64,000 nt of DNA from a candidate division Kazan bacterium RIFCSPLOWO2_01_FULL_48_13 (GTDB lineage Bacteria > Patescibacteriota > Kazan-3B-28 > UBA10110): the NCBI GenBank assembly GCA_001771275.1, contig METE01000001.1, positions 55,158-119,157 of the forward strand. Reading direction: 5' to 3'. The translations under genes and the position numbers were made by a program. The notes under the pieces are model-generated. The model saw only the letters and a list, made by a program, of their open reading frames with translations, was not told the DNA's origin and ran no database searches. The stretch's first letter is position 1; each line of letters opens with the position of its first letter. This document shows, one piece after another, positions 25,661 to 55,182 of this stretch.

Positions 25661-25663
25661 CTC

Positions 25664-37437: not shown

Positions 37438-37441
37438 GCCT

Positions 37442-38332
37442 ATGAAAGTAATTATTCCGATGTCCGGCGCCGGCGATCGATTTAAGCGGGCTGGCTACAC
37501 CACCCCCAAGCCCATGATCTTGGTGGACGGTCGCCCGATGATCGATCATGTGGCGGACCTCTTTTCGCCGGATGACGAATTTATTTTTGTCTGTAACCAG
37601 GATCACCTCAACGATGTGTCGCTTAGGCTAGCCGACCATCTAAAAAACCTGCGCCCCAACGTAACGGTGATCGGGCAAGAGCCTAAGAAACTCGGGCCAA
37701 ACTACGCTATCCTGGCAGCCGCCGAATTTCTAAACGATGAGCCGGTGTTGGTAAGCTACTGCGACTATGCCCTGAGGTGGAATCGGGCCGACTTTTTGGA
37801 CAAGGTTCAGGCGCTGCATCCGGATAGCGCGTCGATCTGTTATATCGGTTTTCATCCACACCTGTTAGGCCCTAACCTATATGCCGGCGTACGAGTAGAT
37901 CAAGATGGCCGGGCGCTTGAGGTAAGGGAAAAACATTCCTTTACCGAAGATAAGATGCAGACCTGGCAGCAGGCCGGGTTGTTTTACTTTTCGTCTGGAC
38001 AGCTGCTAAAACGATACTGCGAACGGGCGCTCAAAGAGGGTTGGCTGCTAAATGGCGAATCATATACCAGCCTGCTATTTAACCCAATGCTCCAAGATGG
38101 GCTTAGTTCTTTGGTGTATCCGGCGGATTATTTCTGCCAGCGGGGCACCCCGGAGGATCTAGAGGAGTACGAGGCTTGGTCGCGGTTGTTAGCCCAAGAA
38201 CAGGGCCGAATTAAAGGAGTAACCGATATCCCGGCTAGCCGGTTAGCCAATGTCGGAATAAAATTTAGCCCCAACTCCCCTGAATACCAACGATCATACG
38301 CCTATTGGAAAAGTTATTTCGAGAATAAATAA
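37442..38332 (+). CDS. Sugar-phosphate nucleotidyltransferase (NTP_transferase fold)
   Basis: MKVIIPMSGAGDRFKRAGYTTPKPMILVDGRPMIDHV; stop TAA overlaps the ATG of the downstream paralog (TAATG). Confidence 0.6.
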   Translation: MKVIIPMSGAGDRFKRAGYTTPKPMILVDGRPMIDHVADLFSPDDEFIFVCNQDHLNDVSLRLADHLKNLRPNVTVIGQEPKKLGPNYAILAAAEFLNDEPVLVSYCDYALRWNRADFLDKVQALHPDSASICYIGFHPHLLGPNLYAGVRVDQDGRALEVREKHSFTEDKMQTWQQAGLFYFSSGQLLKRYCERALKEGWLLNGESYTSLLFNPMLQDGLSSLVYPADYFCQRGTPEDLEEYEAWSRLLAQEQGRIKGVTDIPASRLANVGIKFSPNSPEYQRSYAYWKSYFENK

Positions 38333-39159
38333 TGGCAACTAATGTCATACCAATGTCGGGGGCAGGCGCTCGCTTTGCCGAGCAGGGTTATGTGCTACCT
38401 AAGCCGCTGATCCCGGTTTCTGGTCAGCCGATGATAGCACGAGTAATCCAGGCACTCCCGCCGGCCGATAAGTGGATATTTATTGTCCGCCCGGAGCATG
38501 TGGCCAACTACGGGATCGATCAGATCATCCAAAGAATCGTGCCGGGCGCTATCATAGTTCCAGATCCGAACCCGCACGGCCAGGCTACCAGCTGTCTATT
38601 AGCGCTCCCTCATTTAGACCCAGACGAAGACATCTTCATCGCTGCTTGTGATAACAGCTTTCTGTACGATCAACAGCGGCTTTCAAATATCATCGCTCGA
38701 CCCGATGTTGATGCCGCGTTATGGACCTTTACTCAAGACGAGCTGCTCACCGCCCAACCCGAGGCGTGGGGGTGGGCTAAATTGGCTGCTGATGGAGAAA
38801 CTATAGTGGACATGTCAGTTAAAATTCCAATCTCCCCCGATCCATTTAACGATCACGCGGTGGTGGGCGCTTTTTACTTTAAAAAGGCTAATCAGTTCGC
38901 CGAAGCCTGCGCCCTAATGATGAGAGAAGAATACAAGGTAAACGGCGAATACTACATTGACGCCCTCCCCATCTTCTATAATCGGCTGGGCTGGAAGAGC
39001 GTTATCTTCGATGTCGATCTGTATGTGGGCTGGGGCAAGCCTGCCGATCTGCGCCAATACCAGGAGCGGGAGCGGCAGTATCTCTCGGGGGGGCATTTAA
39101 CCGGGGATGATCAAAAAGATCGCCTCTGGGCTAAATTTTTTGACATTAGCGCGAAATAA
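38332..39159 (+). CDS. Sugar-phosphate nucleotidyltransferase (tandem paralog)
   Basis: MATNVIPMSGAGARFAEQGYVLPKPLIPVSGQPMIARV. Confidence 0.6.
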   Translation: MATNVIPMSGAGARFAEQGYVLPKPLIPVSGQPMIARVIQALPPADKWIFIVRPEHVANYGIDQIIQRIVPGAIIVPDPNPHGQATSCLLALPHLDPDEDIFIAACDNSFLYDQQRLSNIIARPDVDAALWTFTQDELLTAQPEAWGWAKLAADGETIVDMSVKIPISPDPFNDHAVVGAFYFKKANQFAEACALMMREEYKVNGEYYIDALPIFYNRLGWKSVIFDVDLYVGWGKPADLRQYQERERQYLSGGHLTGDDQKDRLWAKFFDISAK

Positions 39160-39194
39160 GCGATATGCTCCGAGTGTAATAAAAGAGCGTCTTT

Positions 39195-39950
39195 ATGCTA
39201 GATTCCCCAAACCAACCACCACCTGCCCCAACCCCCGAACGGGCGGGATCAAAAACGTTCAACCTGCTTAAAAACAGCCTGGCGCTGCAAGATATGGTGG
39301 TCGGTTTTGTCACCTCAATCCACCCGGTCGTGATGCACAACCTGGGCAAGATCGAGGTGCTAAAAAAGGCACTATGGCACTGCGAGCTAGAGAATATCCT
39401 GGGCAGCTACTTTGAATTTGGCGTCTTTCAGGGAACTTCGCTGCTGGCGGCGGCTCGAGCATTTAGAAATCTGAAGTCTTCCACCCCTAGGCGATTCTAT
39501 GGCTTTGACGCGTTCGATACTGGATTCAAATATTTTGACAACCGCGATCAGCATCCGTTCTTTCAGGAGGGCGGATTTTCGGTGCCGTACGAACGGGTAG
39601 CCCGCCGCCTACGGAGATACCCGGAGATCGAACTGATTCGCGGTTACTTTGAGCATTCGTTCACCGAACCTCGGGCCGTGGCGTTGCGCGGCCAGGAAAA
39701 ATGCGCAATCGCCTTTATCGATTGCGATCTAATGAACCCGGCCCTGCTCTCGCTGGAATACGTCAAACCGCTATTGCAGGCCGGATCAGTTATCATCCTG
39801 GATGATTACTGGGCGTATAAAGGCGATGCGACGTTAGGCATTGCTGGCGCACTCAAATCATTTTTAGAAAATAATCCCGGCATCCACTTGCGAGAATTTT
39901 ATCGGTACGGATACGGAGGCACCTCTTTCATCGTAGAGCGGGTATCATAA
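39195..39950 (+). CDS. TylF/MycF-like class I SAM-dependent O-methyltransferase
   Basis: GVFQGTSLLAAA...IDCDLMNPALLSLEYVKPLLQAGSVIILDDYW. Confidence 0.45.
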   Translation: MLDSPNQPPPAPTPERAGSKTFNLLKNSLALQDMVVGFVTSIHPVVMHNLGKIEVLKKALWHCELENILGSYFEFGVFQGTSLLAAARAFRNLKSSTPRRFYGFDAFDTGFKYFDNRDQHPFFQEGGFSVPYERVARRLRRYPEIELIRGYFEHSFTEPRAVALRGQEKCAIAFIDCDLMNPALLSLEYVKPLLQAGSVIILDDYWAYKGDATLGIAGALKSFLENNPGIHLREFYRYGYGGTSFIVERVS

Positions 39951-39956
39951 CCTAGC

Positions 39957-41909
39957 TTGGTCAGGTTTTCGGGAGCTAAGAACGAGATGTACAAACTATT
40001 AAAGAAGATCGATTGGGAGAGGAGGGTTTTTGCTTTGCCCACCAACTGGGCAGGAGCACTGACCCTAGTTGCGCTGTGGGCATATGGATTTTTTGGCGCG
40101 CTTTCCTCTGATTCTCATACGCTCAATTTATTCATTTCTCTGATATTGCTGTCCATCTACCTGCTATTTTTGTTCGTTTGGCAAAAGCAGGATCCCCTAT
40201 TCAAAGACAGGTTGGTTATAAAAATGGGTGATGTCTGGGTGGTGGCTATACTGTTTGTCTTTTTATTTATATTTTCTTGGTCCGCATTAGCCATCCCCCT
40301 GGTCAACGACGAACTAGCTCACGCGCAACAAGCCGAACTGCACGGGCTATCGCTCATCTACCTCTTAGTTGGGGGGTGGGGGTGGTTGAATGGACTGACT
40401 TTCGCAGGTGTCCTCTGGGTGATCAACGTAGCCGCCTTAGTCTTAGGAATAGTATCTTATCTGTTTCTCAAACAAAAGGGACTGTGGCTAAAGCTGGTGG
40501 CTTTCTCGTCTGTATTTATTTTATTTCGCCTATTGATCATGGGTTTTGGAGGAAGTGGTGGACAGCACCCGCCATTTCGGCTTTTCCCGCTTTGGCTATC
40601 GGGAACCATTCTATCCCCCTCAGATTTCAGCTTTCGCTTCGCCCAGTTTATTGGGTTGGTAATTTTTGGCTGGTTGATCTGGCGCTTTATTGAAAAACGG
40701 GCTGGACATCTTTTGGCGCTCCTGATCGCTATGACCGCGGTGACCATCCCCGTACTTTGGTATGTCGGTGTTTTGGTTGGGCCATCCATCTGGACAACGA
40801 TGGCCTGGAGTTTGGTTCTGCTGTACATGTATCTGAAACCCAACCTCATCGCCAAGGATTTTCTCCGCCTAGTGGCGATCGTTTCCATCGCCACGCTAAT
40901 GCGGCAGACAGCATTTGTAGCTCTGGTACCGATTTTTTTGCGCCTGGCTTACGATCTATGGAAAAGGGGGTTAACTTTCCGAGAGGTACTGTTGATCTCT
41001 TCTCCTCTGCTGGTGATGGTGCCGTTCTTGCTAATAAGTTTTATCTCCGGCACACCGGCAAGTTATGTGCCAGGAGCAACATCCTATTTCCCCCCAGAGA
41101 CGTCCGGTCTTGGTCGGGTTTGGTTTGCGCTCAGCTCAGGATTAGCTTGGACAGCGATCCGCAACTCGGTTCAGCCGCTCTGGCTGGTATTTGGTGGGGT
41201 GTCGTTGATCTGCCTACTAAAAACTCCGCGGAGGTTTTTAGAAAACATCTTCTTCTTGGCCGGCGGAGTAGGTGTTTTTTATCTAATCAGCCCGTTGCTT
41301 TGGGGCAACGGTCGGTACCAAGCTGAGTACATTATACCTTTCTCAATCCTGGGTTTGATCATGGTAATAATCTTTCTGCGGGAAAAAGTTGGCTGGTTAA
41401 AGTATCACCTGCTTCTCGGCGCATTAGTGATGATCGGCTACAACACTTATTCTTTTATAAAAATCCCCCGACTTAACGCTCCGGTCAATACCTTAATCTC
41501 AACTCGTTACGACCTGATGAAAAAGCTGGGGGAATACAGTATTATCTCTCAGCTCCCCTACGACTACCGTTCGGCAATGACGGCAGCTAAGGATAGCAAT
41601 TATGCCGACTCGCTTTATATCGTTGGATCTACCTACGGAGTTTTCCCCCAGATACTAGACGGTTTTACTATTGGAGAAGCTATTGCCAATAAAAAATTGC
41701 TTGGCAAAGGAGGTTTACTCCGTAACGAAAGTGGCGATTTAACTCCGGCTGATATTAACTCAAACAAGGATATAAAATTGGTATTGGTTTCAGATGTGCC
41801 CAACGCCAATTATTTCTTGGATCAGTTAACGTCCTTGGGTTGGGTAATGTGGGAAGAGTTTAAGGATGAGCGGTTCGGTTCAACTATATTTGGCTTGATT
41901 AGAGAATAA
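39957..41909 (+). CDS. Polytopic membrane protein, putative GT-C-fold glycosyltransferase
   Basis: 650 aa, more than 12 TM helices, C-terminal soluble domain. Confidence 0.45.
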   Translation: MVRFSGAKNEMYKLLKKIDWERRVFALPTNWAGALTLVALWAYGFFGALSSDSHTLNLFISLILLSIYLLFLFVWQKQDPLFKDRLVIKMGDVWVVAILFVFLFIFSWSALAIPLVNDELAHAQQAELHGLSLIYLLVGGWGWLNGLTFAGVLWVINVAALVLGIVSYLFLKQKGLWLKLVAFSSVFILFRLLIMGFGGSGGQHPPFRLFPLWLSGTILSPSDFSFRFAQFIGLVIFGWLIWRFIEKRAGHLLALLIAMTAVTIPVLWYVGVLVGPSIWTTMAWSLVLLYMYLKPNLIAKDFLRLVAIVSIATLMRQTAFVALVPIFLRLAYDLWKRGLTFREVLLISSPLLVMVPFLLISFISGTPASYVPGATSYFPPETSGLGRVWFALSSGLAWTAIRNSVQPLWLVFGGVSLICLLKTPRRFLENIFFLAGGVGVFYLISPLLWGNGRYQAEYIIPFSILGLIMVIIFLREKVGWLKYHLLLGALVMIGYNTYSFIKIPRLNAPVNTLISTRYDLMKKLGEYSIISQLPYDYRSAMTAAKDSNYADSLYIVGSTYGVFPQILDGFTIGEAIANKKLLGKGGLLRNESGDLTPADINSNKDIKLVLVSDVPNANYFLDQLTSLGWVMWEEFKDERFGSTIFGLIRE

Positions 41910-41913
41910 AGCG

Positions 41914-42615
41914 ATGAAATTATCAATTGTGGTTCCATGCTATAACGAAGCACAGAATATCCCACTAATCTTGGAGCGGTTCCAATCAGCGATCCGGCGC
42001 AACGACATAGAAGTTATTTTGGTAGATAACAACTCGGTCGATGGCTCGGATAAGGTGTTGGCCGAGCTGGTACCCAGATACGCTTTCGCGCGCAGTCTAT
42101 CCGAGCCTAGCCCCGGCTACGGCCACGCAGTAGTCGCCGGCCTTAAGATAGCCCACGGAGAATACATCGGCTGGACCCATGCCGATATGCAGACCGATCC
42201 CAAAGATCCTATCCGCGCCTTGGGGATGATCGAAAACCTCGGAAACCCTACAAATATCTATCTGAAGGGTAGACGGTTATCCCGTCCTTGGTTAGACACC
42301 ATATTAACTTGGGGTATGAGCGTGTTCGAAACACTATACCTAGGTCGGGTGCTATTTGACATCAATGCTCAGCCCAATATTTTTCATAAAAACTTTTTTG
42401 CCGCCTGGCAGAACCCACCGGGAGATTTTGCACTTGATCTCTATGCCCTCTATCTAGCCAAAAAGGTAGGGATTCATATCATTCGTTTTGATGTTACTTT
42501 CTTAAAACGAGTTTACGGCGAATCAAGCTGGAACAAGGGCTTAGCTTCAAGGTGGAAATTTATTAAACGGACTATTAAATTTAGTGTGGGATTAAAGAGA
42601 CGGCTGGCACTATAA
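41914..42615 (+). CDS. Family 2 glycosyltransferase
   Basis: MKLSIVVPCYNEAQNIPLIL...VDNNSVDGSDKVL. Confidence 0.75.
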   Translation: MKLSIVVPCYNEAQNIPLILERFQSAIRRNDIEVILVDNNSVDGSDKVLAELVPRYAFARSLSEPSPGYGHAVVAGLKIAHGEYIGWTHADMQTDPKDPIRALGMIENLGNPTNIYLKGRRLSRPWLDTILTWGMSVFETLYLGRVLFDINAQPNIFHKNFFAAWQNPPGDFALDLYALYLAKKVGIHIIRFDVTFLKRVYGESSWNKGLASRWKFIKRTIKFSVGLKRRLAL

Positions 42616-42628
42616 CCGCTACAAAAGT

Positions 42629-42727
42629 ATGGGGGTTACAACTTTAGCTAAGATCAAAAGCGCGGTATCAATTGGCAGCCACCCTTTCACCTTCACGGCC
42701 AGGAGGTCAAATATAAGGTTGACATAA
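42629..42727 (+). pseudogene. Diverged, truncated duplicate of the comM 5' end
   Basis: GTTACAACTTTAGCTAAGATCAAAAGCGCGG (31 bp) is identical to 49288-49318 at the comM start. Translation MGVTTLAKIKSAVSIGSHPFTF... compares with comM MPVTTLAKIKSAASLGLEP, then terminates. Confidence 0.45.
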
Positions 42728-42789
42728 TCAAAAAAGTATGTTATACTAAGATAATTAGGTTCCCAAATAAACCTAACCTAAACAATAAA

Positions 42790-43416
42790 ATGAAAAACAA
42801 ACTTAGTGGATTTTTCCAGACCCAGGCAGAAATAAACCGGCAGATGTTGGTGTTGGGCTCAGTGCTGTTTTTTGCCGGCGTGATGGCCATTGGGACAATT
42901 CAGCTGGCTAATGCCGGGCTGACGGCTGATACAAATGTGGCGCAAAATGTGACAGCTGGCTCTCTGGCGATTACGGCTAATACCCAGTTAAACTTTAACT
43001 CTGGTTCAATCAGCCAAACAACTCTCGCCAACACTGGCGCATCTACTGCTATTGTTCTGCAAGATACTTCCGGCAGCGGCAATGGCTGGTCAGTCACGGG
43101 TTATTTCAACACCAATTTCGTGGCTGCCAATCCTGCTGTTCAGATGGCAATCGACTCGGACATGGCCTGGTACCCAGGCGATATGCAGGTGGCCAACAAT
43201 GGCACCAGCAACAATGCCAGCGTTAATAAAGGTGGTAATGGCGCTTTTGTGGGTATCGCCTCTGGTAATAATAAAACTCTGGCTACATCCAACAACAGTC
43301 ACGGCGATAAAGGGGCTGGCACATATGATGTGTGGAATTTGCCGCTCAACTACACCATTCCATTAAGCGCAACCGCTACCGACTACACAACTAGTTTTCG
43401 ATTGACGATTGCCTAA
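42790..43416 (+). CDS. Small secreted WxL-like surface protein (csc 'B'-like)
   Basis: N-terminal TM/signal; GNGWSVTGYF; C-terminus ...DYTTSFRLTIA. Confidence 0.45.
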   Translation: MKNKLSGFFQTQAEINRQMLVLGSVLFFAGVMAIGTIQLANAGLTADTNVAQNVTAGSLAITANTQLNFNSGSISQTTLANTGASTAIVLQDTSGSGNGWSVTGYFNTNFVAANPAVQMAIDSDMAWYPGDMQVANNGTSNNASVNKGGNGAFVGIASGNNKTLATSNNSHGDKGAGTYDVWNLPLNYTIPLSATATDYTTSFRLTIA

Positions 43417-43513
43417 ATAAAACCTACCAAGCACAATTGCTGAATCTTGGGTTGACCTGCGCGATACCGCAGGTTTTTTGTTATCCAATGGATAGTTTTG
43501 ATAAGATGGGAGG

Positions 43514-45079
43514 GTGGTAAGCAAGAGAAAATCAAAGAAGCAATTAAGCAATTCTAAAATATCTAACTGGTGGCAACGCCTGATGAGTTCTATGACAGCG
43601 TTAGACCGATTGGGCCTGTTATTGTTGGTGGGGTTGGGATTGCGGCCAATATTAGACCCCGACTTTGGTTGGCATTTGCGTTCGGGGACTGATTTACTAA
43701 ACTATCTAGCTGTCCCCAGAACTGACCCATATTCTCATACCCTACCCGACTGGCCGTGGGTAAATCATGAGTGGTTAAGCGATGTAGTAGTGGCCTTTAC
43801 CCATAATCACTTAAGCTCACTGGTGGTGATTATACTCTTTACTATATTGATAACTACGATTTTTCTGTTGGCCGCCTCAGTCGAGCCAGTCGGTTGGCCC
43901 TATAAAATACTGGCTGCTGTAGTTGGGTTACTGGCAGCGCTACCGATACTGGGGGTGAGAATGCAGATGATCACTTTACTTGGGATGGCCTGGCTAATTT
44001 GGATTTTGTACCGACATCGGCGCGGGGACTTAAAAAATTTGTGGTGGCTACCAATTGCCTTTCTACTATGGGCCAACCTGCATGGTGGATTTGTCATCGG
44101 TTTGGTGATTTTGGTGGTTTGGTGGCTGTGCGAAGGGGCGAAGTATCTGATACTACACTGGCGGCCAGTGTGGTATTCCAAACTGCAGATTACCGAACTG
44201 GCATTGGATCGATCACAGTTAAGACATTTGTTTGGCATCAGTTGGCTGGCTGGTATCGCCACTCTGATAAACCCTTACGGTTGGGGCCTGTATGCCGATT
44301 TTTATAAGCTGTTTACCAATCCATTTGCTATTCAACACATTAGCGAGTGGCAACCGGTGTCGTTAGATAACGCCCTATCACTGAACTTCACTCTATATCT
44401 GATCCTGTTCGGGCTGGTACTACTAATGACCTACCGCAAGATTGAACCAACCCGCTGGATAATGTCCGGCTTGTTTTTGTATTTATCGCTGTTGTATTGG
44501 CGCAATATGCCGTTTTTTATGATAATCAGCGTCGGATTTTTAGCGGAGATTCTTCAGCAACATACCCATCTTATAATCAGATCCCTGAGCAAAAATAAAT
44601 GGGTCCTCACCGGTGCCGTAATAATAATTAGCATTATTATTGGCCAGAGAATTGATGATGTAGCGGGCAAGCTGATCAACCCAACAGCCAGTCTTCGCTC
44701 TGGCGGATATCCGATTGATGCCGTCCAGTGGGCAAAAGCCAACCCAGACAAAATTGGCAAGACAATGTTTAACGAATATGATTGGGGCGGATTTCTCATC
44801 TGGCAGTTCCCCGAACAAAAAGTCTTTGTAGACGGCCGAATGCCGTATTGGAAGACCAGCAATCGGTTTCCTTTTCTGGAAGAGCAATACGCTATATCCG
44901 CCCAATCAGGATCCATCGAAATGTTGGAAAATACATATGGGGTTGATTGGATAATGATCAGACCCGGGCGCCAGTTGGCGTTGGTTTTGTCGGGACAAAA
45001 AGATTGGAAATTAGTCTACCATGACACTATCGCAATGATTTATTATAGAATAGATGGTAGTGATAAAAATAACACCTAA
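43514..45079 (+). CDS. Polytopic membrane protein, 'DPDFGWHLRSG' family (putative GT-C-like)
   Basis: 521 aa; paralog of 17419 and 21029; FNEYDWGGFLIWQFPEQKVFVDGRM. Confidence 0.55.
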   Translation: MVSKRKSKKQLSNSKISNWWQRLMSSMTALDRLGLLLLVGLGLRPILDPDFGWHLRSGTDLLNYLAVPRTDPYSHTLPDWPWVNHEWLSDVVVAFTHNHLSSLVVIILFTILITTIFLLAASVEPVGWPYKILAAVVGLLAALPILGVRMQMITLLGMAWLIWILYRHRRGDLKNLWWLPIAFLLWANLHGGFVIGLVILVVWWLCEGAKYLILHWRPVWYSKLQITELALDRSQLRHLFGISWLAGIATLINPYGWGLYADFYKLFTNPFAIQHISEWQPVSLDNALSLNFTLYLILFGLVLLMTYRKIEPTRWIMSGLFLYLSLLYWRNMPFFMIISVGFLAEILQQHTHLIIRSLSKNKWVLTGAVIIISIIIGQRIDDVAGKLINPTASLRSGGYPIDAVQWAKANPDKIGKTMFNEYDWGGFLIWQFPEQKVFVDGRMPYWKTSNRFPFLEEQYAISAQSGSIEMLENTYGVDWIMIRPGRQLALVLSGQKDWKLVYHDTIAMIYYRIDGSDKNNT

Positions 45080-46460
45080 AATCTTCGGTGGCATTGTAGC
45101 GGTAGTCGTGGCGATTAGTTTGTCGCCGCTAACGACCTGGGCCATGTCGGCTGGTGGAATGAGTATTGCCCCGGCTCCCAACCCCACATTCCCCGATCGA
45201 AATAAGGGTTGGTTTATTTATGAACAAGTTGAGCCCGGCACAGTGATCGAAGATGTGGCGCGGGTAATAAATTTGGACAGTAGCACAGCCACCATAACCA
45301 TTGAGACTGTGGATGCGGGGATGAACGAAGATGGCGGTTTTGGTTTAGTGGGAAGCCCGGAGGAAAACATAGATATTGGCAGATGGATAGAGCTATCGAA
45401 AACCGAGGTGACCTTACCAGCCAACCGGGAAGAGATTGTTCCTTTTAAAATAACAGTTCCGGCGGATGCGGAGGTGGGCGACCATATTGGAGCATTGGCG
45501 GTTTATCAAATTAGTCCAGCAACAGATAAGACTGCAAAAATTGGCGGGTCGCAGGTAAGTATCAGTACCCGAGTGGGGGCCAGGATTTATCTGACCGTCA
45601 AGGGAGATATCGTGCGTGGATTAAAATTACTTAAAGGGTCGTTGTATGGTCGAGGGCAGTCTTTGATGTTTGGTTTAAAAGTGAAGAATTTAGGCAATGT
45701 GCGGGCGGATTTGAGGATGACAGCAAAAATATATAGCATTTGGGGGGTGTATGACAAAAAAGAAGCCATCCAAATTGGTCAGGTTTTCCCCAGAAAAACA
45801 ATTAGCATTCAGGCGCCTTGGCCAGGAAAATCTCGTCCGATTTTTGGTTTGTATTGGGCGAGTGTCACCATTGAAGATGCTTTTAAGGGATTAAATCCGA
45901 TTAATAGTCCGCTGCCAGCCAGCCAGCCAATTCATACTTGGGTGGTTACTTTCTTTATTCCGTGGACCCAAACAGCGATTTTGGTATTACTATTGTTTTT
46001 GATTTGGTTCTTTATTCAGCTAAGAAGATGGCGGCAGATGGTAGCTCTTTCCACCACACCGGTGGTGGCTTATAAGATAAAACCGGGCGATCATTTGGCA
46101 AATATCGCGGCTCGATATGGTATCAGTTGGAAACTATTGGCCCACTTAAATGAAATCAAACCACCATACAGTCTGCATGGAGTCGCTCAAATTTATGTAC
46201 CAGACGCTAAGGGTAGCCGGCAGGGCATGAGAGCTCCGCGCTTCCTGGCGTATTTAATTAAGCCACTTCATCGTTTCTGGCGCCGCAGATCACCAGATGT
46301 GATCGTGGTGGAACCAGGCGACACTAAGACAGATGTCGAAAAATTTACTGGCTTATCGTGGAAAAGGTTGGCAGCTTATAATCAGCTATCCCCTACTTCG
46401 GCACTAAAGAGCGGCCAAGAGTTGAGGGTGCCATCGACTTACCGAAGGAATACTCGCTGA
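45054..46460 (+). CDS. DUF916/DUF3324-like (CscA-like) surface protein with TM segment and two LysM domains
   Basis: NKGWFIYEQVEPGTV...DIGRWIELSKTEVTLPANREEIVPFKITVPADAEVGDHIGALAVYQ; TM WVVTFFIPWTQTAILVLLLFLIWFFI; LysM 1 YKIKPGDHLANIAARYGISWKLLAHLN...IYVP; LysM 2 VVEPGDTKTDVEKFTGLSWKRLAAYNQL...LRVP. Confidence 0.6.
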   Translation: MVVIKITPKIFGGIVAVVVAISLSPLTTWAMSAGGMSIAPAPNPTFPDRNKGWFIYEQVEPGTVIEDVARVINLDSSTATITIETVDAGMNEDGGFGLVGSPEENIDIGRWIELSKTEVTLPANREEIVPFKITVPADAEVGDHIGALAVYQISPATDKTAKIGGSQVSISTRVGARIYLTVKGDIVRGLKLLKGSLYGRGQSLMFGLKVKNLGNVRADLRMTAKIYSIWGVYDKKEAIQIGQVFPRKTISIQAPWPGKSRPIFGLYWASVTIEDAFKGLNPINSPLPASQPIHTWVVTFFIPWTQTAILVLLLFLIWFFIQLRRWRQMVALSTTPVVAYKIKPGDHLANIAARYGISWKLLAHLNEIKPPYSLHGVAQIYVPDAKGSRQGMRAPRFLAYLIKPLHRFWRRRSPDVIVVEPGDTKTDVEKFTGLSWKRLAAYNQLSPTSALKSGQELRVPSTYRRNTR

Positions 46461-46501
46461 GAATCCCTATCAGCAAAGGTTAGAACAAGCGAGGTTAGTT
46501 T

Positions 46502-48016
46502 ATGAGCAGATCGAGGCTGCAAAAATTAGTTATTTGGATAATAGTGGGGGGACTATCTCTGGTGAATGCCAGCAGTTTAGTTTTACGGTTTCCCCGACCA
46601 GCCTATGCCGTAACCAAAATGCTACTATTATGGGACGACGGCACCTACGGCGCTGTGCCATCGGGCTGGACAACTGATGCGACCTATAACGACCTGATGT
46701 TACGGGGCAACACGACAGCCGGCGGAACTGGAGGGAGCGATACTCACACCCATACCATTACTAATGCCAATGTTGACACAGTCAACACCGGTAGTAACGC
46801 CCAGCAGAAAAAAGGCTCGGCTACAGTATCGGCCCAAAGCCATACTCATGCGATTACCAGTTCATCGATGTCGAACGAATCTTCCTTGCCGCCATATCGC
46901 GGACTAATGGTAATTGCCAACGATAGCGGTATTCCAACCACCTTGCCGTTAAATATAATCGTGTTGTTTGATACAGCCAGTCTCTCCGGTGATTTTAGCC
47001 GATATTCAGCCCAAGATAACTATTTTGTGCGCGGGGCATCGACAGCCGGAGGCACAGGGGGCTCTTCGGCGCTACACGGACATAGTAGTGTGGCTTTTGG
47101 CACTGGCAACCCGAATTCGACCGAAGCCGCCATGGTGACTGGCGCGGCGGTGACTGCCAACACCAGTACCCACTCTCACTCCTTAACCGGCAGCACTACT
47201 GATACGGATGGTGATATTGCGCCGCCACATGTTAATACGGTGTTAGCCAGAGTAACAACTGACGGCATCGCTATTCCGGCGGAAATGATCTCCATATTTG
47301 ATGCCGCCCCCGGAACTGGTTGGAATTCATTAAGTGGTGTGGGTGGTGATTTTAACCAAAAATACATTGAAGGAACATCAACTTATGCTGCGGCTCAAGG
47401 CAATGCCACCCATAACCACAACAAAACTGGCGGGTATACAACTAATACCGTCTCAACCGGTACCGGTTTGGGTACTGGGACCCCCGCTAAGGGGGTGGCC
47501 ACTAGCCATGCGCATCCGTTGGCAAGTCCAACTTTTAGTGACGGCAACAACGCGCCAGCCTATAAAGATGTGATCGTTGGCAAGAAGTTGGCTGAACTGG
47601 GGGTAACTGCCCCCGCCAATATTACTTTGACGGCTGGTAATCCCAGCCAGACACTGGATACTACTTTTCCTGGTGGCAGTGAGGTGACTGTGACGGATGG
47701 CGGCAATGGGTGGAGTATAACGGTCATTATGCAGACTACTCTGACATCTGGCGGCAACACCATTCCGAATGCCAATGTAAAAATTCGCAAGGATGGATTA
47801 GTTGATAGCGGAAGTTACACTATTTGGGGAGGAACCTACACTAATGTGGCTGAAACAAATGCTACCGAATCACTGGATGTTTCTCGGACTGTAGGCACTC
47901 GAAGTAGCGGGACAAGTGGAGATTCCACGACGACACGACCGAGTATCCAAGTAGTTATCCCCGGGATACAGGCGGCTGGAGATTATGTCGGCGCAATGAG
48001 ATTTACGGTGGCCTAA
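46502..48016 (+). CDS. Large secreted surface protein with WxL-like C-terminal domain (csc 'C'-like)
   Basis: N-terminal signal/anchor; GNGWSITVI; terminal ...DYVGAMRFTVA; C-terminal 130 aa homologous to 14930. Confidence 0.5.
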   Translation: MSRSRLQKLVIWIIVGGLSLVNASSLVLRFPRPAYAVTKMLLLWDDGTYGAVPSGWTTDATYNDLMLRGNTTAGGTGGSDTHTHTITNANVDTVNTGSNAQQKKGSATVSAQSHTHAITSSSMSNESSLPPYRGLMVIANDSGIPTTLPLNIIVLFDTASLSGDFSRYSAQDNYFVRGASTAGGTGGSSALHGHSSVAFGTGNPNSTEAAMVTGAAVTANTSTHSHSLTGSTTDTDGDIAPPHVNTVLARVTTDGIAIPAEMISIFDAAPGTGWNSLSGVGGDFNQKYIEGTSTYAAAQGNATHNHNKTGGYTTNTVSTGTGLGTGTPAKGVATSHAHPLASPTFSDGNNAPAYKDVIVGKKLAELGVTAPANITLTAGNPSQTLDTTFPGGSEVTVTDGGNGWSITVIMQTTLTSGGNTIPNANVKIRKDGLVDSGSYTIWGGTYTNVAETNATESLDVSRTVGTRSSGTSGDSTTTRPSIQVVIPGIQAAGDYVGAMRFTVA

Positions 48017-48064
48017 AACCAAAACCGGTTGGGCAGATAGAGATCTCCCGCTTATAATAGAACT

Positions 48065-49222
48065 ATGAGGTGGCTTTGGAAATTAATTACTGCCGAGTTA
48101 GAAGTAACCCTGGCCCTGTTAATGCTGTTGGGGAGCATGGTGGTGTTGTCTGGGGTTTATGCCAACACTGCAGATATAAATGTTTCCCTCACTGTTCTGG
48201 AAGAGACCGAAGAGGAGAATGGCGACGGAGGGAGTGGGAGTGGTGGTAGTGGCGGGAGTGGAATCTCGTTACCAATCCCATCAACATCCACATCGCCCGT
48301 ACTAACTATGCCGTTACCGGAAAAACCCAAACCGCCAGAGGAGTTTAAATTGGTAGATTATGTGCCCAAAGTGATACCTGTACATCGCGATGCGCTAATC
48401 GTGCTGTACGGCTATGGTTTCCCATCAGATTTTAAAATCGTGATAAAGGCCAAAGATGCGATGTTGGTAGCGGACAGCGCTATGGTGAATAAGAAAACTG
48501 CCATCATCGAGGGGGCTGTGCTCGAGGCCGTGCAGTATGTCATCCCAGCGAAAACATTATCGCCGGGCGAGGCAGTATTGGTGATTCAGGAAGCTAATCA
48601 AGTATTGACCCCACCATTGCGAATACTGGTGTACGATCCCGCCCAAGCAATAAAATTGCGGGCGCAGATCGCTCAACGAACGATCAACATAACCGTTGCC
48701 AGTGGTCAGTCTGCCAATGTCGCCGTTAAATTTAAAAATATCGGATTAACTGAATGGGACTATTTGCTTCAACCATTACATATTGGGACTGACCAACCTC
48801 GTGACCGGCAATCCCGATTTGTTCATCAAGATTGGCCTTATAATAATCGGGTGGCGAAAATAAGTTTGCCAACGAATATAAATACTGGGGAATCATTTGA
48901 TGCCATTTTTTCCATACAAGCTCCAGTGGTAAAACGAACCACCCGATATACCGAGAATTTCGCGCTGGTGGCAGAGGGTATCGCTTGGATCTCAGGTTCT
49001 AATTTCACTGTCCGCATCACCGTTACCGCACCAGTGGCAATAAAGACGGTTAGATCGATTATCAAAACGACTCCCCCGGCGCCGGCCATCAAAAAGCCCG
49101 CCGCCCCCTATAAGACCCCCGGCGCCATACCAACAACTGGTGGTCAAAGTGGTGTCTGGTTGAACGGAATAAAATCATTCTTTACGCGGCTGTTCAGCTT
49201 TCTTATTATCACGCCTCGGTAG
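48065..49222 (+). CDS. Secreted/surface protein with Gly-Ser linker (hypothetical)
   Basis: N-terminal TM, GDGGSGSGGSGGSG linker, beta-rich body, hydrophobic C-terminal tail. Confidence 0.4.
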   Translation: MRWLWKLITAELEVTLALLMLLGSMVVLSGVYANTADINVSLTVLEETEEENGDGGSGSGGSGGSGISLPIPSTSTSPVLTMPLPEKPKPPEEFKLVDYVPKVIPVHRDALIVLYGYGFPSDFKIVIKAKDAMLVADSAMVNKKTAIIEGAVLEAVQYVIPAKTLSPGEAVLVIQEANQVLTPPLRILVYDPAQAIKLRAQIAQRTINITVASGQSANVAVKFKNIGLTEWDYLLQPLHIGTDQPRDRQSRFVHQDWPYNNRVAKISLPTNINTGESFDAIFSIQAPVVKRTTRYTENFALVAEGIAWISGSNFTVRITVTAPVAIKTVRSIIKTTPPAPAIKKPAAPYKTPGAIPTTGGQSGVWLNGIKSFFTRLFSFLIITPR

Positions 49223-49277
49223 TAAATAATTATTGGGTAGATAGACCCGCCGGGGTCGGATTTGTTACAGTAGGGAT

Positions 49278-50804
49278 GTGCCTGTTACAACTTTAGCTAA
49301 GATCAAAAGCGCGGCCTCACTGGGGTTGGAGCCGATCCTGATCGATGTTGAGGTAGATATCAGCAATGGTCTGCCGAATTTTTTAATAGTTGGCTTGCCG
49401 GACAAGGCGGTGGATGAGGCGCGCGAACGAGTGCGGGCCGCCATTAAAAACAGCAATGTCCAGTTCCCTACCCGTCGGATCACGGTTAATTTAGCGCCGG
49501 CGGACATCCGCAAAGAAGGCCCGGCTTACGACTTGCCGATTGCAATCGGATTACTTTTAGCCGGTGAACAGATCTACCCACCAGAAAACAGTCTGTTTTT
49601 AGGCGAACTGGCGCTAAATGGTGAGGTCCGCCCAATTAGTGGCGCAATTTTATTTGCCTCTTTGGCACAAAATCGAGGCGTAAAAACTTTATATGTACCA
49701 GCCGCCAACGCGGCTGAGGCAGCGTTAATATCCGGCATAGAAGTAATCCCGGTAGATAATTTAATCAATTTAATTGCACATTTACGGCGAGAAAAGATTA
49801 TCCCTGCCCTGCCCCCTACCCCCATCGATCCGCAAGCCGCGTTGTTTATCAATAGCGCGTTCGATCTAAAATATGTCGCTGGCCAAGAACACGCCAAAAG
49901 AGCATTGGAGATCGCGGCGGCTGGGCGACATAATATTTTAATGAGCGGCCCACCGGGTAGCGGAAAAACTATGTTGGCCAAAGGCTTAATTACGATTCTG
50001 CCACCACTCAGTGTTAACGAAGCGTTAGAAGTAACTAAAATCCATAGCATCAGCGGTTTAATGGACCCCGGTCAGCCATTAGTATGGCAGCGGCCATTTA
50101 GAAGTCCGCATCACACCGCCTCGGCTGTCGCGATTACTGGTGGCGGTAACTGGCCCAAACCTGGCGAGATCTCGCTCGCCAATCAGGGCGTATTATTTTT
50201 AGATGAACTGCCGGAGTTCCCGAGGAGCGTATTAGATGCCCTAAGACAACCTCTCGAAGATAGAGTAGTCTATATTTCCAGAGCGGCGATGACCACCAGC
50301 TTCCCAGCTAATTTTATGTTGGTAGCCGCCCAAAATCCTTGCCCCTGCGGTTTCTTTGGCGATCCACAAAAACCTTGTAAATGCAGCGCTGGACAAATTT
50401 TAGGTTATCAAAAAAGAGTATCGGGACCATTGTTGGATAGAATTGACTTACATATTAATGTCCCAAGAATTTCTTACGAAAAATTGACCGGCGCGGCTGA
50501 ATCAGAGAATTCAGCGGATATTCGTGCTCGGGTGATGGCCGCTTGGAGTATTCAACAACAAAGATTTTCCGGAACAAAAACCACCAGCAGCTCCGAGATG
50601 AATACTGAACAGACTAAACAATACTGCCAGCTTAGTGAAGATAGCCATCGCCTAATGCAAGCAGCTGTTGATCGAATGAATCTCTCTGGCCGCGGAGTTA
50701 ACCGCACGCTCAAAGTGGCGCGCACCATCGCTGACCTCGCCAAATCGCCGCAAATTACCGCAACCCACATCGCAGAAGCCCTCAGTTACCGCCTCCAAAA
50801 TTAA
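49278..50804 (+). CDS. comM: YifB/ComM-family Mg-chelatase-like AAA+ ATPase
   Basis: Lon-protease-like N-terminal domain; Walker A GPPGSGKTMLAKG; Walker B VLFLDELPEF; Mg-chelatase C-terminal domain. Confidence 0.85.
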   Translation: MPVTTLAKIKSAASLGLEPILIDVEVDISNGLPNFLIVGLPDKAVDEARERVRAAIKNSNVQFPTRRITVNLAPADIRKEGPAYDLPIAIGLLLAGEQIYPPENSLFLGELALNGEVRPISGAILFASLAQNRGVKTLYVPAANAAEAALISGIEVIPVDNLINLIAHLRREKIIPALPPTPIDPQAALFINSAFDLKYVAGQEHAKRALEIAAAGRHNILMSGPPGSGKTMLAKGLITILPPLSVNEALEVTKIHSISGLMDPGQPLVWQRPFRSPHHTASAVAITGGGNWPKPGEISLANQGVLFLDELPEFPRSVLDALRQPLEDRVVYISRAAMTTSFPANFMLVAAQNPCPCGFFGDPQKPCKCSAGQILGYQKRVSGPLLDRIDLHINVPRISYEKLTGAAESENSADIRARVMAAWSIQQQRFSGTKTTSSSEMNTEQTKQYCQLSEDSHRLMQAAVDRMNLSGRGVNRTLKVARTIADLAKSPQITATHIAEALSYRLQN

Positions 50805-50829: not shown

Positions 50830-50960
50830 ATTGTCATCCTCAACCGAAGCGAAGCATACCACACATTGTCATCCTGAAAACACCTTACTGCCGTAGGCTA
50901 ATATAAATAACTTATTCAGGATCCAGGCCTGGATTCCGGATCAAGTCCGGAATGACAGAA
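50830..50960. repeat. Mosaic palindromic repeat cluster
   Basis: GTCATCCTCAACC...GTCATCCTGAAAACACCTTACTGCCGTAGGC...ATAACTTATTCAGGATCCAGGCCTGGATTCCGGATCAAGTCCGGAATGACAG. Confidence 0.7.
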
Positions 50961-52367: not shown

Positions 52368-52373
52368 CAAAAT

Positions 52374-52484
52374 TTGGCAACGACCTACTTTCACAACCCG
52401 AAAGTTACTATCATCGGCGCTGAAGGGCTTAACTGCTGTGTTCGAGATGGGAACAGGTGTGGCCCCTTCGCGAGAGTCACCAAG
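52374..52484 (-). rRNA. rrf: 5S rRNA
   Basis: The minus strand aligns to bacterial 5S (ACTATCATCGGCGCTGAAGGGCTTAACTGCTGTGTTCGAGATGGGAACAGGTG as the reverse complement of the conserved core). Terminal helix I is TTGGTGAC/GTCGTTGCCAA. Confidence 0.75.
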
Positions 52485-52572
52485 TTCTACTTCTCTGGGG
52501 GAAGAGAAGCAGAACTCGATTACCCTCGTAAGATCCCGGGTAAACCGGGATGCCGCGGCAAGGTAAACCGCG

Positions 52573-52878
52573 TCACTTCTTGTCTAATAGCTCGCGCAGT
52601 TTTTTGAGGTTCTCCTCCATCGAGAGGAAGACCTGCAACAGTTCGGCCGCCGCAAAAAATACAATGCCGTAAAGTACGCCGCCAATCAAAACGACCAGCG
52701 CGGACATCCACGCCGAATCATACGGCGAGGCCATGCCAACCTGGGAGATAACACCGGGGAACGCCAGCCAAATAATGGCTATAAGCAGTCCACCCAATAC
52801 ACTCACCCAAGCGAGTACCCAGAGCAACAGTATGGTAGTCTTCAGCATTTTAAATCTGCTGTTTGTATTCTTTTTCAC
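52573..52878 (-). CDS. Small two-TM membrane protein encoded in the 23S-5S spacer
   Basis: 101-aa ORF with two clear hydrophobic helices and a charged C-terminal tail (EENLKKLRELLDKK); same strand as the rRNAs. Confidence 0.4.
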   Translation of the reverse strand: MKKNTNSRFKMLKTTILLLWVLAWVSVLGGLLIAIIWLAFPGVISQVGMASPYDSAWMSALVVLIGGVLYGIVFFAAAELLQVFLSMEENLKKLRELLDKK

Positions 52879-53119
52879 CCCGTAGAAGAATTTAGAAATT
52901 ATATTCTCTTCTTGTCTTGGGCATTATCGTTTAAAAACTGCCCCATCAATAGTTGTCACAGTTATGCTTATCCGCGGAGAATATAGCTTTCGCCAAAGGC
53001 GTTCTAAATTTCTCTACGGGGCATGACACTCTTAGTTTACCACAAAAAATAACTCCAGATTCCCGCCGGAGTTTATCCCGACTAGTCGGGGCGGGAATGA
53101 CGGGTGGGAAAGAAATGTG

Positions 53120-53161
53120 CGTTTCTTATGATCGCCGATTAAGAGACAAGCTCTTAAGAGT
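53120..53161 (-). other. 3' strand of 23S processing stem (pairs with 59991-60031)
   Basis: The reverse complement of 53120-53159 is TCTTAAGAGCTTGTCTCTTAATCGGCGATCATAAGAAACG. This nearly equals the plus-strand TCTCAAGAGCTTAGTCTTAATCGGCGATCACAAGAAACG at 59993-60031, making a ~39-bp inverted repeat that brackets the mature 23S. Confidence 0.7.
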
Positions 53162-53487
53162 AGAGTCAAGTGATCGGATTATTAGTACAACTCGGCTGAA
53201 TCCCTTACGGGACTTACACCTGTTGCCTATCAACCAAGTAGTCTACTTGGATCCTTATCCCGCCAATTTAAGGTTCGTATGGCATACCGTCAGCCAAAAT
53301 AGCAATGAGCTAAATTAGATGGAGTAAATCACACACCAGCCCTAAATTGGCGGGAGGGAAATTTATCTTGAGGTTGGCTTCACACTTAGATGCTTTCAGC
53401 GTTTATCCAATCCGAACATAGCTACCCAGCACTGCCCTTGGTAGAACAACTGGTATACCAGCGGTCCGTTCGCTTCGGTCCTCTCGT

Positions 53488-54292
53488 CACTTATTCCCCT
53501 ATCACTAGGAGCGTAGACTATATCTTCACCCATTCTGCTTTTGCAACAGAATTAGGGTGGCGGCGTATTACCTATATGTATCTGTCTGCTAAAATCAGCG
53601 GACTTTCCAATGACATATAAGTCCGTTCTGGTGTTTTTGAACAACAGAACAAGTCGTTACGGGGTCAAACCTAAAACTTTGTATAACTCCACTTTAGTCT
53701 TCTTTTTCTTAGTGACATAATTTTCACCCTGAATCACCAAGATCAGATCGATTAAAGTTTTTAGAGTCTTACTCTCCAGCATATTTTTGGCATTGTCAGA
53801 CAAGATTTCGGCTGCCGTATGTAACGCAACAGCTTGAATCTTTTTAAATCGGATAAATGGCAACAGACTCCCGAGAATATCTCGAACCTGTTGATACCCA
53901 TTGATACGAAGCTCGGTCATGCCATCGTTCCTCGTGGAATGATAGCCTATGCCCAAAACTTCGCGAATCCAATGCAGAGCCTTTGCATGGCGTGTGTCCT
54001 GATAGAAACAGATGGTGGTCATAAAACGAATTTTTGATCTTCCATCTTTACGCTTCTTGATTTGAAGCATCAGACTTCCATCTCCATCAAGGAAACCCGC
54101 TATGTACGCTAGATCCGTTTTAGATCGACTTCCCACGGTATTGTCTTATTTCGTTCTGGTCCTCAAGTGAATTGTACCATAATCGCAAGAACCGTTAGCA
54201 ATTATGGCTATCAACGGATACAGAGCTGATAAGATTCCACCGTTATTAGCCGCATTGTCATCGTAGATTACTCTACGAAGTAGCAATTCTTT
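53488..54292 (-). mobile_element. Group I intron 1 in 23S, inserted between ...GCTTCTAGT and ACGAGAGGACCG (immediately 5' of the sarcin-ricin loop core); encodes LAGLIDADG endonuclease
   Basis: The 5' exon ends in U and the intron ends in G (…AATAAGTG|ACGAGAGG). The intron contains the R/S-like core elements (rc of CAAGTCGTTACGGGG and AGACTATATCTTC) and ORF 53657..54136. Confidence 0.65.
53657..54136 (-). CDS. LAGLIDADG homing endonuclease (intron 1)
   Basis: [18 protein letters not shown] (LAGLIDADG motif); 159 aa. Confidence 0.8.
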   Translation of the reverse strand: MGSRSKTDLAYIAGFLDGDGSLMLQIKKRKDGRSKIRFMTTICFYQDTRHAKALHWIREVLGIGYHSTRNDGMTELRINGYQQVRDILGSLLPFIRFKKIQAVALHTAAEILSDNAKNMLESKTLKTLIDLILVIQGENYVTKKKKTKVELYKVLGLTP

Positions 54293-54355
54293 ACTAGAAG
54301 CGACTCCCCTCAAATTTCCTACGTCAACAGCAGATAGAGACCGAACTGTCTCACG

Positions 54356-55099
54356 CATGATCTTCCACTATTACTAATGGCATAGACTATATCTTCTTCC
54401 TTTTAGCCCACCGGCTAAGGAGGAGTTGGCGTGTGATAATCGACATAACAACTATCGACTATCTCATCGATCCACTGGCCTTCAGCGAATCGAATCAGTC
54501 GTTACGGGGAAAGAGATTATGTTCTTGCAGAAATTGTTTAACCGTTGCTCGCGTGGTCGTGCGTTTCTTGGAGTAATTGTACGCTGCGGTTTCATCCACC
54601 AGAGCCGCTCTTTTGAGCAACTCGGTGGGAGAGATTCTTTTGGGTGAAGACTTAATTCCCATTACACATAGGTTGATAACTTTTTGCGCAATGGTCTTTT
54701 TTAGCCGCAGATATGGTAACAATTTGGTTAAAACTTCGTAGACCGACTGATACCCCACAATGGTGTATTCAGCCATATGATCATTACGAACACGAACATA
54801 TCCATACTTCAGTTGGCCCTTGAGCCATTCGAGAAAATATTTTTTGCTTTCTTTTTGATAGAAAACAACACTCACTCGAATCTGATAGCCATGAACATAT
54901 CCACTCCGTTTAACCAGTTGCGCCATAATGCAACCGTCTCCGTCTAAGAATCCCGCAATGTAGGCAAATAACTTTTCTGCCATAACCTCGATCTTCCCTC
55001 GGGGTTGCCCTCTCTTCGTTCGGTATAAAAGAGTAGGGGTTCTCCGATATAAGCCAAATTTATTGTATCGCATTTCTGCGATAGAACGCAATGTAACTT
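54356..55099 (-). mobile_element. Group I intron 2 in 23S at the GGGTTCAGAACGT|CGTGAGACAG site (E. coli about 2593); encodes LAGLIDADG endonuclease
   Basis: Exon junction read directly; the intron ends in G. S-like element (rc of AGACTATATCTTC at 54385) and R-like element (rc of CAGTCGTTACGGGG). Confidence 0.7.
54495..55091 (-). CDS. LAGLIDADG homing endonuclease (intron 2)
   Basis: [18 protein letters not shown]. The ORF-track start at 55091 is a TTG codon; ATG alternatives are MRYNKF (55073) or MAEKLF (54983). Confidence 0.75.
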
Positions 55100-55132
<33 letters not shown>

Positions 55133-55182
55133 TGGCGAACAGCCAAACCCTTCCCACCTGCTTCAGCGGGAGGATGCGACGG

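Follow-up and report, generated by a model that had tools for sequence, protein, structure and literature searches.

The DNA analyzed here is a 64-kb stretch (the window) of the Kazan metagenome-assembled genome (MAG) RIFCSPLOWO2_01_FULL_48_13 (Patescibacteria) from the Rifle aquifer. Within it, an operon of cell-surface proteins (~6.65 kb, five open reading frames, or ORFs, termed c1 to c5 and together the cassette) lies between two copies of the start of comM (also yifB), the gene for a natural-transformation helicase. An original prediction, made from the letters of the sequence, took this arrangement to be an inserted island at a comM hotspot; the insertion, the comM stub, and the empty site that it implied are all supported below, whereas foreign origin, hotspot status, and self-mobility are not.

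Duplicated comM start at the borders of the operon

Both borders of the cassette carry a direct repeat that overlaps the 5′ end of comM, and the displaced comM start sits at the far (left) border. The repeat is an exact 31-mer, GTTACAACTTTAGCTAAGATCAAAAGCGCGG, present in exactly two copies in the window, both on the plus strand (Table 1), with a spacing between repeat starts of 6649 nucleotides (nt); no further match exists in the window at ≤3 mismatches, and none of 100 shuffles contained any 31-mer match, even at ≤3 mismatches. An exact two-copy repeat of this length had been predicted, as had the presence of five ORFs between the copies, but its coordinates (42638-42668 and 49288-49318) were 3 to 4 nt too high. 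Gapless extension carries the repeat to 41 nt at 90%, and homology to comM, in the comM frame, extends over 47 nt in total in both copies.

On the right, the repeat forms codons 3 to 13 of an intact comM, whose product matches TIGR00368 at 603.2 bits (cut-off, 362.4) over residues 10 to 505 and model positions 2 to 499, a full-length YifB/ComM match. On the left, it forms codons 3 to 13 of a 32-codon ORF beginning MGVTTLAKIKSAVSIG (42629-42727), which is comM-like in its first 47 nt only. Mismatches between the two copies are confined to the edges: four of the 6 positions before the block differ, none of the 31 within it, and four of the 10 after it, a clustering with a P value of ~7e-4 (Fisher's exact test for 0/31 versus 4/10, 0.002).

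Because at least four independent assemblies from different samples and sources (L017, L018, L023, and L024, at ≥99.9% identity; labels of this kind denote the compared loci) span both junctions, the repeat and stub are not an assembly artifact; these assemblies differ at ≤12 positions over their full lengths.

Empty site, right junction, and clade-native origin of the cassette

Searches with ComM recovered only seven protein clusters at ≥86% identity, and genomic context was obtained for all of them. The closest relative with the same left flank is the MAG Zod_Metabat.691, represented by L001 and the longer L120, the ComM of which is 90% identical to that of the window. In the window, the cassette is preceded by a family-2 glycosyltransferase gene (GT2), the final gene of a 9.6-kb glycosylation cluster (33027-42615), and the GT2 ortholog in L001/L120 is 75% identical in amino acids (aa). 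Gene order in L120 (ArgRS, PGA_cap, HAD, PRK, aldolase, a 205-aa gene, two NTP-transferases, TylF, PMT, and GT2) matches that of the window from 30 to 42.6 kb, and comM follows 16 nt after GT2, starting ATGGGGGTT. The original prediction had suggested looking for just such a site, with GT2 followed directly by comM, in related genomes.

By blastn, L120 is colinear with the window across all 11 genes (8-10765 against 31894-42675), the alignment ending at the stub's last base, and it resumes inside comM (10730-11933 against 49289-50492), such that the window has one additional segment, of 6649 nt. On this comparison, in which the L120 alignment breaks off where the stub does and picks up again within comM, the stub is comM's original 5′ end, in keeping with the prediction that the left copy is a decayed N-terminal fragment of comM. 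The stub matches the comM starts of L120 and L109 at 41 of 47 positions each, and the resident comM at 39 of 47; its tail, TATCAATTGG, remains comM-like as well, with 8 of 10 positions matching L120. An alternative, in which the glycosylation cluster and the stub were inserted into an L111-like ancestor, was ruled out because L120 has the cluster in place without the cassette.

The start of comM differs among these genomes. It reads ATGGGG in L120 (upstream neighbor, GT2), in L109/L110 and L117/L011 (upstream neighbor, a small GIY-YIG gene), and in L118 (a short contig), and ATGAGA in L116 (upstream neighbor, PGA_cap). A GTGCCT (VPV-type) start is found only in the window and in L111, the genomes in which c5 abuts comM. 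The stub thus has the ATGGGG type of cassette-less relatives, and the functional comM of the window has the GTGCCT type.

The right junction is conserved. A 48-nt block ahead of the repeat (49236-49283) differs from its counterpart in L111 (9959-10006) at one position, as against identities of 67 to 87% in protein and 74 to 80% in DNA for the neighboring genes; L116, which is without the cassette, has only the GTAGGGAT motif in common, just before the comM start. Since this upstream motif is common to the cassette-less L116 and the block to L111, these alignments indicate that the imported DNA had no discrete element terminus on the right but extended beyond the cassette to include the upstream region of a donor comM and the first codons of that gene. 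At the left, the 43 nt between the stub and the cassette promoter (42676-42718) have no similarity to comM or to the promoter-upstream regions of related cassettes.

The cassette itself is native to the clade. Homologs of the five genes occur in the same order in L002, L004, L005, L111, L112-L115, L119, and L122: between ArgRS and PGA_cap in L002, L112/113, L114/115, and L122, where they follow ArgRS directly; just upstream of PGA_cap in L004 and L005 (whose recovered sequence does not reach upstream of the cassette); and between PGA_cap and comM in L111. No bounding repeats were found at the cassettes of L002, L004, and L005, and no stub-like sequence in L111 or any other locus examined. Composition tells the same story: GC content is 0.476 for the cassette and 0.474 for the window, and its tetranucleotide distance (0.184, versus 0.150 +/- 0.024 for same-size sliding segments) is equaled or exceeded by 8 of 58 segments. 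A foreign origin of the cassette, for which GC and tetranucleotide skew had been offered as a check, is therefore not supported: its composition lies inside the window's spread, and other Kazan genomes have its homologs in the neighborhood of ArgRS, PGA_cap, and comM. What does hold is the claim that the interval is self-contained, in that it has a putative promoter of its own (42719-42747) and a hairpin at its end (49244-49257). The promoter motif, itself a prediction, is kept ahead of c1 in all copies as TTGACA-N17-TGnTATACT or something close to it, among them L111, L119, L114, L112, L002, and L005, with a TTGACA...TGcTATACT variant in L122.

Table 1. Positions of features at the comM locus and in the second surface cluster (window coordinates)
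Feature	Position	Strand	Evidence or description
GT2, family-2 glycosyltransferase, left flank of insertion	41914-42615	+	Pfam Glycos_transf_2, E 2.4e-18
comM′ stub (left copy), read as displaced original first 47 nt of comM	42629-42675	+	ATGGGG start, 31-mer, TATCAATTGG; then unrelated sequence, ORF running to TAA at 42725-42727
Left 31-nt exact direct repeat	42635-42665	+	
Junction segment, 43 nt	42676-42718	+	Between stub and cassette promoter; illegitimate joint placed at 42675/42676
Cassette promoter (predicted)	42719-42747	+	TTGACA-17-TATACT with TG extension; best promoter-like site in 42.4-49.6 kb, 11/12 positions
c1, 208 aa, secreted or membrane-anchored, putative divergent WxL-like protein	42790-43416	+	One N-terminal hydrophobic segment
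Terminator-like hairpin after c1	43454-43475	+	8-bp stem, then TTTTGTTATC; consensus match only
c2, 521 aa, polytopic membrane protein, GT-C-fold architecture, DPDFGWH motif	43514-45079	+	AlphaFold2, Foldseek
c3, 468 aa, WxL-interacting peptidoglycan-binding domain (DUF916), transmembrane segment, two LysM	45054-46460	+	Pfam
c4, 504 aa, Thr/Gly/Ser-rich secreted protein	46502-48016	+	Conserved across relatives in C-terminal ~140 aa only
c5, 385 aa, N-terminal hydrophobic segment, Gly-Ser linker	48065-49222	+	67% identical to L111 ortholog
Conserved right-end junction block	49236-49283	+	Hairpin GACCCGCCGGGGTC (49244-49257), GGATTTGTTACA, GTAGGGAT motif, comM start GTGCCT
Right copy	49278 onward	+	GTGCCT, 31-mer, CCTCACTGGG; then full-length YifB/ComM
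Right 31-nt exact direct repeat	49284-49314	+	
Intact comM/yifB, 508 aa, start VPV (GTG CCT GTT)	49278-50804	+	TIGR00368; Pfam ChlI, Mg_chelatase, Mg_chelatase_C
Second cluster, large protein	14930-17356	-	C terminus 48% identical to that of c4
Second cluster, c2 paralog	17419-18963	+	40%
Second cluster, WxLIP_PGBD plus LysM gene	19330-20982	-	
Second cluster, c2 paralog	21029-22642	-	34%
Second cluster, PMT_2/GT-C gene	22611-24281	-	
Second cluster, WxL-like gene	24494-25081	-	Pfam WxL, E 5.9e-5

Several features of these intergenic regions were observed in passing. In L111 (2060-2300) and L119 (60-260), an untranslated leader of ~200 to 240 nt separates the promoter from c1, compared with ~40 nt in the window; the longer leader could be a regulatory RNA that was lost from the window copy. 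Between c5 and comM, the block combines a GC hairpin with a possible TAGACC-N17-TACAGT promoter whose end lies only a few nt from the GTG, a hint that the comM leader is very short or missing. Small GIY-YIG genes lie directly upstream of comM in three related lineages (L011, 9520-9990; L109/L110, 9677-9985; and L117, 581-889) and are listed likewise at 25460-25975 of the window and 9503-9597 of L002. Flanked by GTCGTCCTGAGCG.AGCGAAGG-type repeats and with 20-nt tandem repeats ahead of them, they look like small mobile units and point to repeated insertion in the region upstream of comM. Finally, a dispersed hairpin repeat of ~65 to 90 nt (GTCATCCTGAAAACAC..GTAGGC..ATAACTTATTCAGGATCCAGGCCTGGAT) occurs in the window at 50866-50929, 60118-60182, 12592-12660, 9767-9838, and 30000-30041; copies just 3′ of comM and just 5′ of ArgRS bracket the variable ArgRS-comM interval, and the repeat is kept (93%) at the same place in L111 (11733-11796).

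Age and proposed mode of the insertion

The flanks of the cassette are 69 to 80% identical to L120 (20 to 31% DNA divergence), and the orthologous 31-nt block has accumulated four differences between the window lineage and L120 and between 3 and 9 between any two distinct lineages. Because the noncoding stub has 0 changes in 31 nt despite this divergence of its flanks, the duplication is, by this measure, far more recent than the divergence of the window lineage from L120, and an insertion in the window lineage appears more likely than a duplication that was ancestral and then lost from L120.

No mobility function was detected with the cassette. Integrase, recombinase, and transposase domains are absent from the five cassette proteins (Pfam and NCBIfam), from the 35 of ~48 non-overlapping window ORFs of ≥120 aa that were scanned with Pfam, and from Pfam annotations already computed for same-strain loci across the 30-60 kb region, consistent with the earlier remark that no integrase is visible. 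Terminal inverted repeats are likewise absent at the cassette, and no tnsABC, tniQ, or tnsF genes occur among the scanned window proteins. A transposon-like 31-nt target duplication was ruled out, given that comM-like sequence lies on both sides of the block and that transposase and terminal inverted repeats are missing. Nor does the site appear to be reused: eight related comM loci (L001/L120, L011, L109/110, L111, L116, L117, and L118) have no second copy of the comM start, L111 among them, although its cassette adjoins comM, and no match to the 31-mer turned up in viral contigs or among the first 16 loci.

Our preferred reading, on which we are evenly poised between acceptance and doubt, is that the locus is the scar of a one-off recombination event and not a self-mobile element, left by a Campbell-type crossover with donor DNA. 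The ancestor would have had the sister-type order (ArgRS, PGA_cap, glycosylation cluster, GT2, and a comM starting with ATGGGG), and a segment would have been taken from a related Kazan lineage with the operon directly upstream of comM, as in L111. This segment would have consisted of the operon promoter, c1 to c5, the terminator and intergenic block, the GTGCCT start, and ~40 nt of comM, and one illegitimate joint, now at 42675/42676, would have closed it into a circle. A single crossover with the resident comM, probably dependent on RecA, would then have occurred inside the 31-nt identical block, the only identical stretch of both 5′ ends. As a result, the block would have been duplicated; the resident ATGGGG and block would have been fused to the donor tail, forming the 47-nt stub after GT2; and the donor upstream region and GTGCCT would have been placed before the rest of the resident comM, the gene remaining intact.

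Because the tail of the stub is L120-like and the sequences flanking the block mismatch, the block in the incoming DNA would have been flanked on either side by sequence of a diverged comM 5′ end, and the sharp edges of the identity would be explained by a crossover confined to the identical block. RecA-mediated transformation is predicted to need 25 to 35 bp of identity (PMC6382021), and the 31-nt identical block, inside 47 nt of comM homology, is an anchor of that minimal length. The arrangement resembles Campbell-type and homology-facilitated events in having a homologous anchor in a conserved gene plus one illegitimate joint, with the anchor doubled if the molecule is circular. Unlike those events, which are experimental and come from Acinetobacter, Streptococcus, and Pseudomonas, it would be a natural scar in Patescibacteria.

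Several observations weigh against a Campbell-type crossover or limit the comparison. The donor is not among the genomes compared: the nearest cassette, that of L111, is ~80% identical in DNA and supplies the nearest c2 match in the searched collections (83%), where no near-identical cassette was found. The empty site with a GT2 flank comes from a single lineage (L001/L120), all relatives are ≥20% diverged in DNA, and a metagenome scan with the GT2 protein returned matches of ≤64% identity, from unrelated phyla and none with comM downstream. Neither a circular nor an excised form turned up; the ComM protein expected after excision (MGV start joined to the window body) had no exact match, a result that is not decisive, and a recombinase may be encoded outside the 64 kb. 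An identical block with differing flanks is improbable a priori and is explained only if the mechanism selects identity, and RecA crossovers on 31 bp are rare. In a neighbor-joining tree of ComM, the window is placed beside L001 at only 34 to 36% bootstrap. A mosaic test of comM (L111-like versus L001-like sites) has its best breakpoint near the 3′ end (permutation p = 0.053) and demonstrates no 5′ donor tract; L111-like and L001-like sites number 20:18 in the first ~180 nt and 12:28 in the next 180 nt, a weak excess.

The same segment could also have arrived as a linear fragment, by homology-facilitated illegitimate recombination, with its right end recombining homologously past position +47 of comM, its left end joined illegitimately at +47, the stub all recipient, and the resident 5′ end all donor. 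This route, which we regard as doubtful, would need one illegitimate joint and no circle, and it fits both the resemblance of the stub to the sister start in L120 (ATGGGG...ASIG) and the weak L111-like excess just described; the mechanism is documented in naturally transformable bacteria in the passages of PMC6382021 that draw on de Vries and Wackernagel 2002 and others. It would, however, leave the perfect 31-nt identity to coincidence, in a block at which lineages otherwise differ at 3 to 9 positions and next to 10 nt that differ at 4, and comM has no significant mosaic breakpoint.

A third possibility, close to the original prediction, is an integrase-dependent mobilizable island, a non-autonomous element in which the 31-nt block would be the core of an attachment (att) site, attP would mimic the 5′ end of comM, and a tyrosine or serine recombinase encoded elsewhere would have catalyzed the integration and replaced the start of the gene. 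The best analogy is with the islands and prophages placed at the 5′ end of dusA by DusA-associated integrases, which carry their own tyrosine integrase by the att site, share a 21-bp semi-conserved site, occur in >200 genomes with variable cargo, and have been shown by PCR to excise (PMC4482086). Like them (Farrugia et al. 2015), the comM locus has an insertion in the first codons of a housekeeping gene, an intact gene with a newly supplied 5′ end, and a remnant at the other border, an architecture that in dusA islands comprises imperfect repeats, an element-supplied 5′ end and promoter region, and the old 5′ end on the far side (PMC4482086). The identity block is sharp-edged on both sides, comM-like sequence lies on both sides of it, and it holds an 8-bp palindrome, TTAGCTAA, as read from the sequence, although 31 nt would hold one by chance in ~9% of cases. 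Unlike dusA islands, the comM locus is without an integrase, represents a single occurrence, and has a native operon as its cargo, and its right border passes without a break into the native comM upstream sequence, common with L116. No recombinase gene was detected in the cassette or in the scanned ORFs of the 64 kb, the other comM loci lack any sign of reuse, the operon usually sits after ArgRS without repeats, and viral contigs lack the 31-mer, all of which makes such an island distinctly unlikely.

A related and quite improbable variant is a non-autonomous integrative element, for which a recombinase encoded elsewhere in the genome or by a co-resident element would recognize the first ~37 nt of comM and insert or excise the operon, swapping the start and promoter of the gene as it does so; if true, it would imply a reversible surface change coupled to rewired expression of a competence helicase in episymbionts.

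The original prediction had called comM a classical hotspot for island integration. That analogy is to the Tn6022/AbaR/AbGRI1 elements of Acinetobacter baumannii, which are Tn7-like (tnsABC, tniQ, and tnsF), have terminal TnsB-binding repeats, generate a 5-bp duplication, interrupt and inactivate comM, and carry resistance cargo (PMC11014353). The Kazan locus is like them in its target gene, comM/yifB, only; it is unlike them in its duplication of 31 nt instead of 5, its intact comM, and its lack of tns/tniQ genes.

It is very improbable that the duplication dates back to the common ancestor and that recombination between the repeats removed the cassette from L120. Deletion between the repeats would indeed recreate the order GT2, ATGGGG, block, and comM seen in L120, and L111 places the adjacency of cassette and comM deeper in the group, but an old stub should have diverged, as the orthologous block did between lineages, and the stub itself requires an earlier adjacency of GT2 and comM. 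An assembly chimera across the short repeat has practically no claim: contigs L027 and L028 do stop at the last base of the left repeat or 1 nt before it, but both the reads and the large k-mers are longer than the repeat, the first contig comes from a k=31 assembly and the second from a fragmented one, and hence both stop at a repeated 31-mer. Population heterogeneity was considered as the source of these contig ends and set aside in favor of k-mer-sized graph breaks.

Members of the candidate phyla radiation (Patescibacteria) are uncultured and have small genomes, and gene exchange among them is poorly known; the locus offers a base-pair-resolved example, with an empty site, an occupied site, a displaced gene start, and a related genome with the donor-type arrangement all in hand. 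Under the Campbell-type reading, a whole surface operon would have moved within the variable ArgRS-comM interval via 31 nt of identity, without detected mobile-element genes, landing next to a sugar-activation and glycosyltransferase cluster, and the start codon and upstream region of the natural-transformation helicase gene would have proved exchangeable without inactivation. The 31-mer and the two junctions can serve as markers of any ongoing excision in Rifle aquifer reads: the predicted empty-site junction reads ...CAAAAGTATGGGG, the 31-mer, and CCTCACTGGGGTTGG, and the predicted circle reads ...GTAGGGATGTGCCT, the 31-mer, and TATCAATTGGCAGCC. Related strains in metagenome contigs can be sought with the degenerate query sequence GTNACNACNTTRGCNAARATHAARAGYGCNG.

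Predicted products of the operon and other features of the window

The five cassette proteins can be described to differing degrees. The small protein c1 has no Pfam match; its family aligns with that of a paralog elsewhere in the window (24494-25081) by hhalign at 96% probability (E 1.9e-9), and the paralog in turn matches Pfam WxL (PF13731) at 23.6 bits, under the cut-off of 25. For c2, for which an alternative start at 43583 is called in other assemblies, the AlphaFold2 model has a mean pLDDT of 90.8 and a pTM of 0.88, and the top Foldseek matches in the PDB are STT3, AglB, PglB, DPY19, AftA, and ArnT (probability 1.0; TM, 0.50-0.58 for the best). Residues P49, D50, G52, and W53 are invariant in 42 homologs, the DPDFGW(H) motif as a whole being invariant or nearly so, and c2 is accordingly predicted from its modeled fold to be a GT-C-fold membrane glycosyltransferase with an acidic motif in its first extracytoplasmic loop.

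The c3 protein matches WxLIP_PGBD (PF06030) at 30.8 bits (cut-off, 27.3) and LysM at E 4.8e-18, the latter in two stretches. Both c4 and c5 have signal-like N termini. No family match, WxL included, was found for either of them. The C terminus of c4 shares 48% identity with the C terminus of window ORF 14930-17356 and 62 to 79% with those of L111 and L112; the labels previously given to these two, a large WxL-like protein and a Gly-Ser surface protein, are not verified by a family model. Judging from domains and fold, the most likely role of the cassette is to assemble a surface complex that is glycosylated and anchored to peptidoglycan.

In Firmicutes such as Lactobacillus and Enterococcus, WxL/Csc clusters combine small and large secreted proteins with a DUF916/WxLIP_PGBD protein, with several clusters per genome. 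The cassette is like these in its small and large secreted proteins, in its WxLIP_PGBD protein (c3), and in being accompanied by a second, paralogous cluster at 14.9-25.1 kb on the minus strand; it is unlike them in having a GT-C glycosyltransferase and LysM domains, in belonging to Patescibacteria, and in that the link of c1 to WxL runs via a sub-threshold paralog. Among the cassette proteins, none of the LPXTG or WxLIP_HBD type was detected. The second surface cluster occupies window positions 14930-25081 (minus strand), plus 17419-18963 on the plus strand, and its genes are listed in Table 1.

In L005, a c4 homolog of 1088 aa (4130-6550) contains internal direct repeats with a period of ~1.3 kb, in which 300-nt blocks are 83 to 100% identical; because of these repeats, the large surface protein appears to have expanded by tandem duplication.

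Two RNA genes of the window are also unusual in length. The RNase P RNA (RF00010, 159 bits; 1729-2498, minus strand) spans 770 nt for model positions 1 to 367, and the gene thus seems to carry an insertion of ~400 nt. In the 52372-59988 region (minus strand), the 23S rRNA match covers 3960 nt for a 2925-nt model, several ORFs for LAGLIDADG homing endonucleases (53657-57591) lie in or after the 23S gene, and the 5S rRNA is 3.5 kb past the point where the 23S annotation ends, a layout suggestive of large introns or spacers in the rRNA genes.

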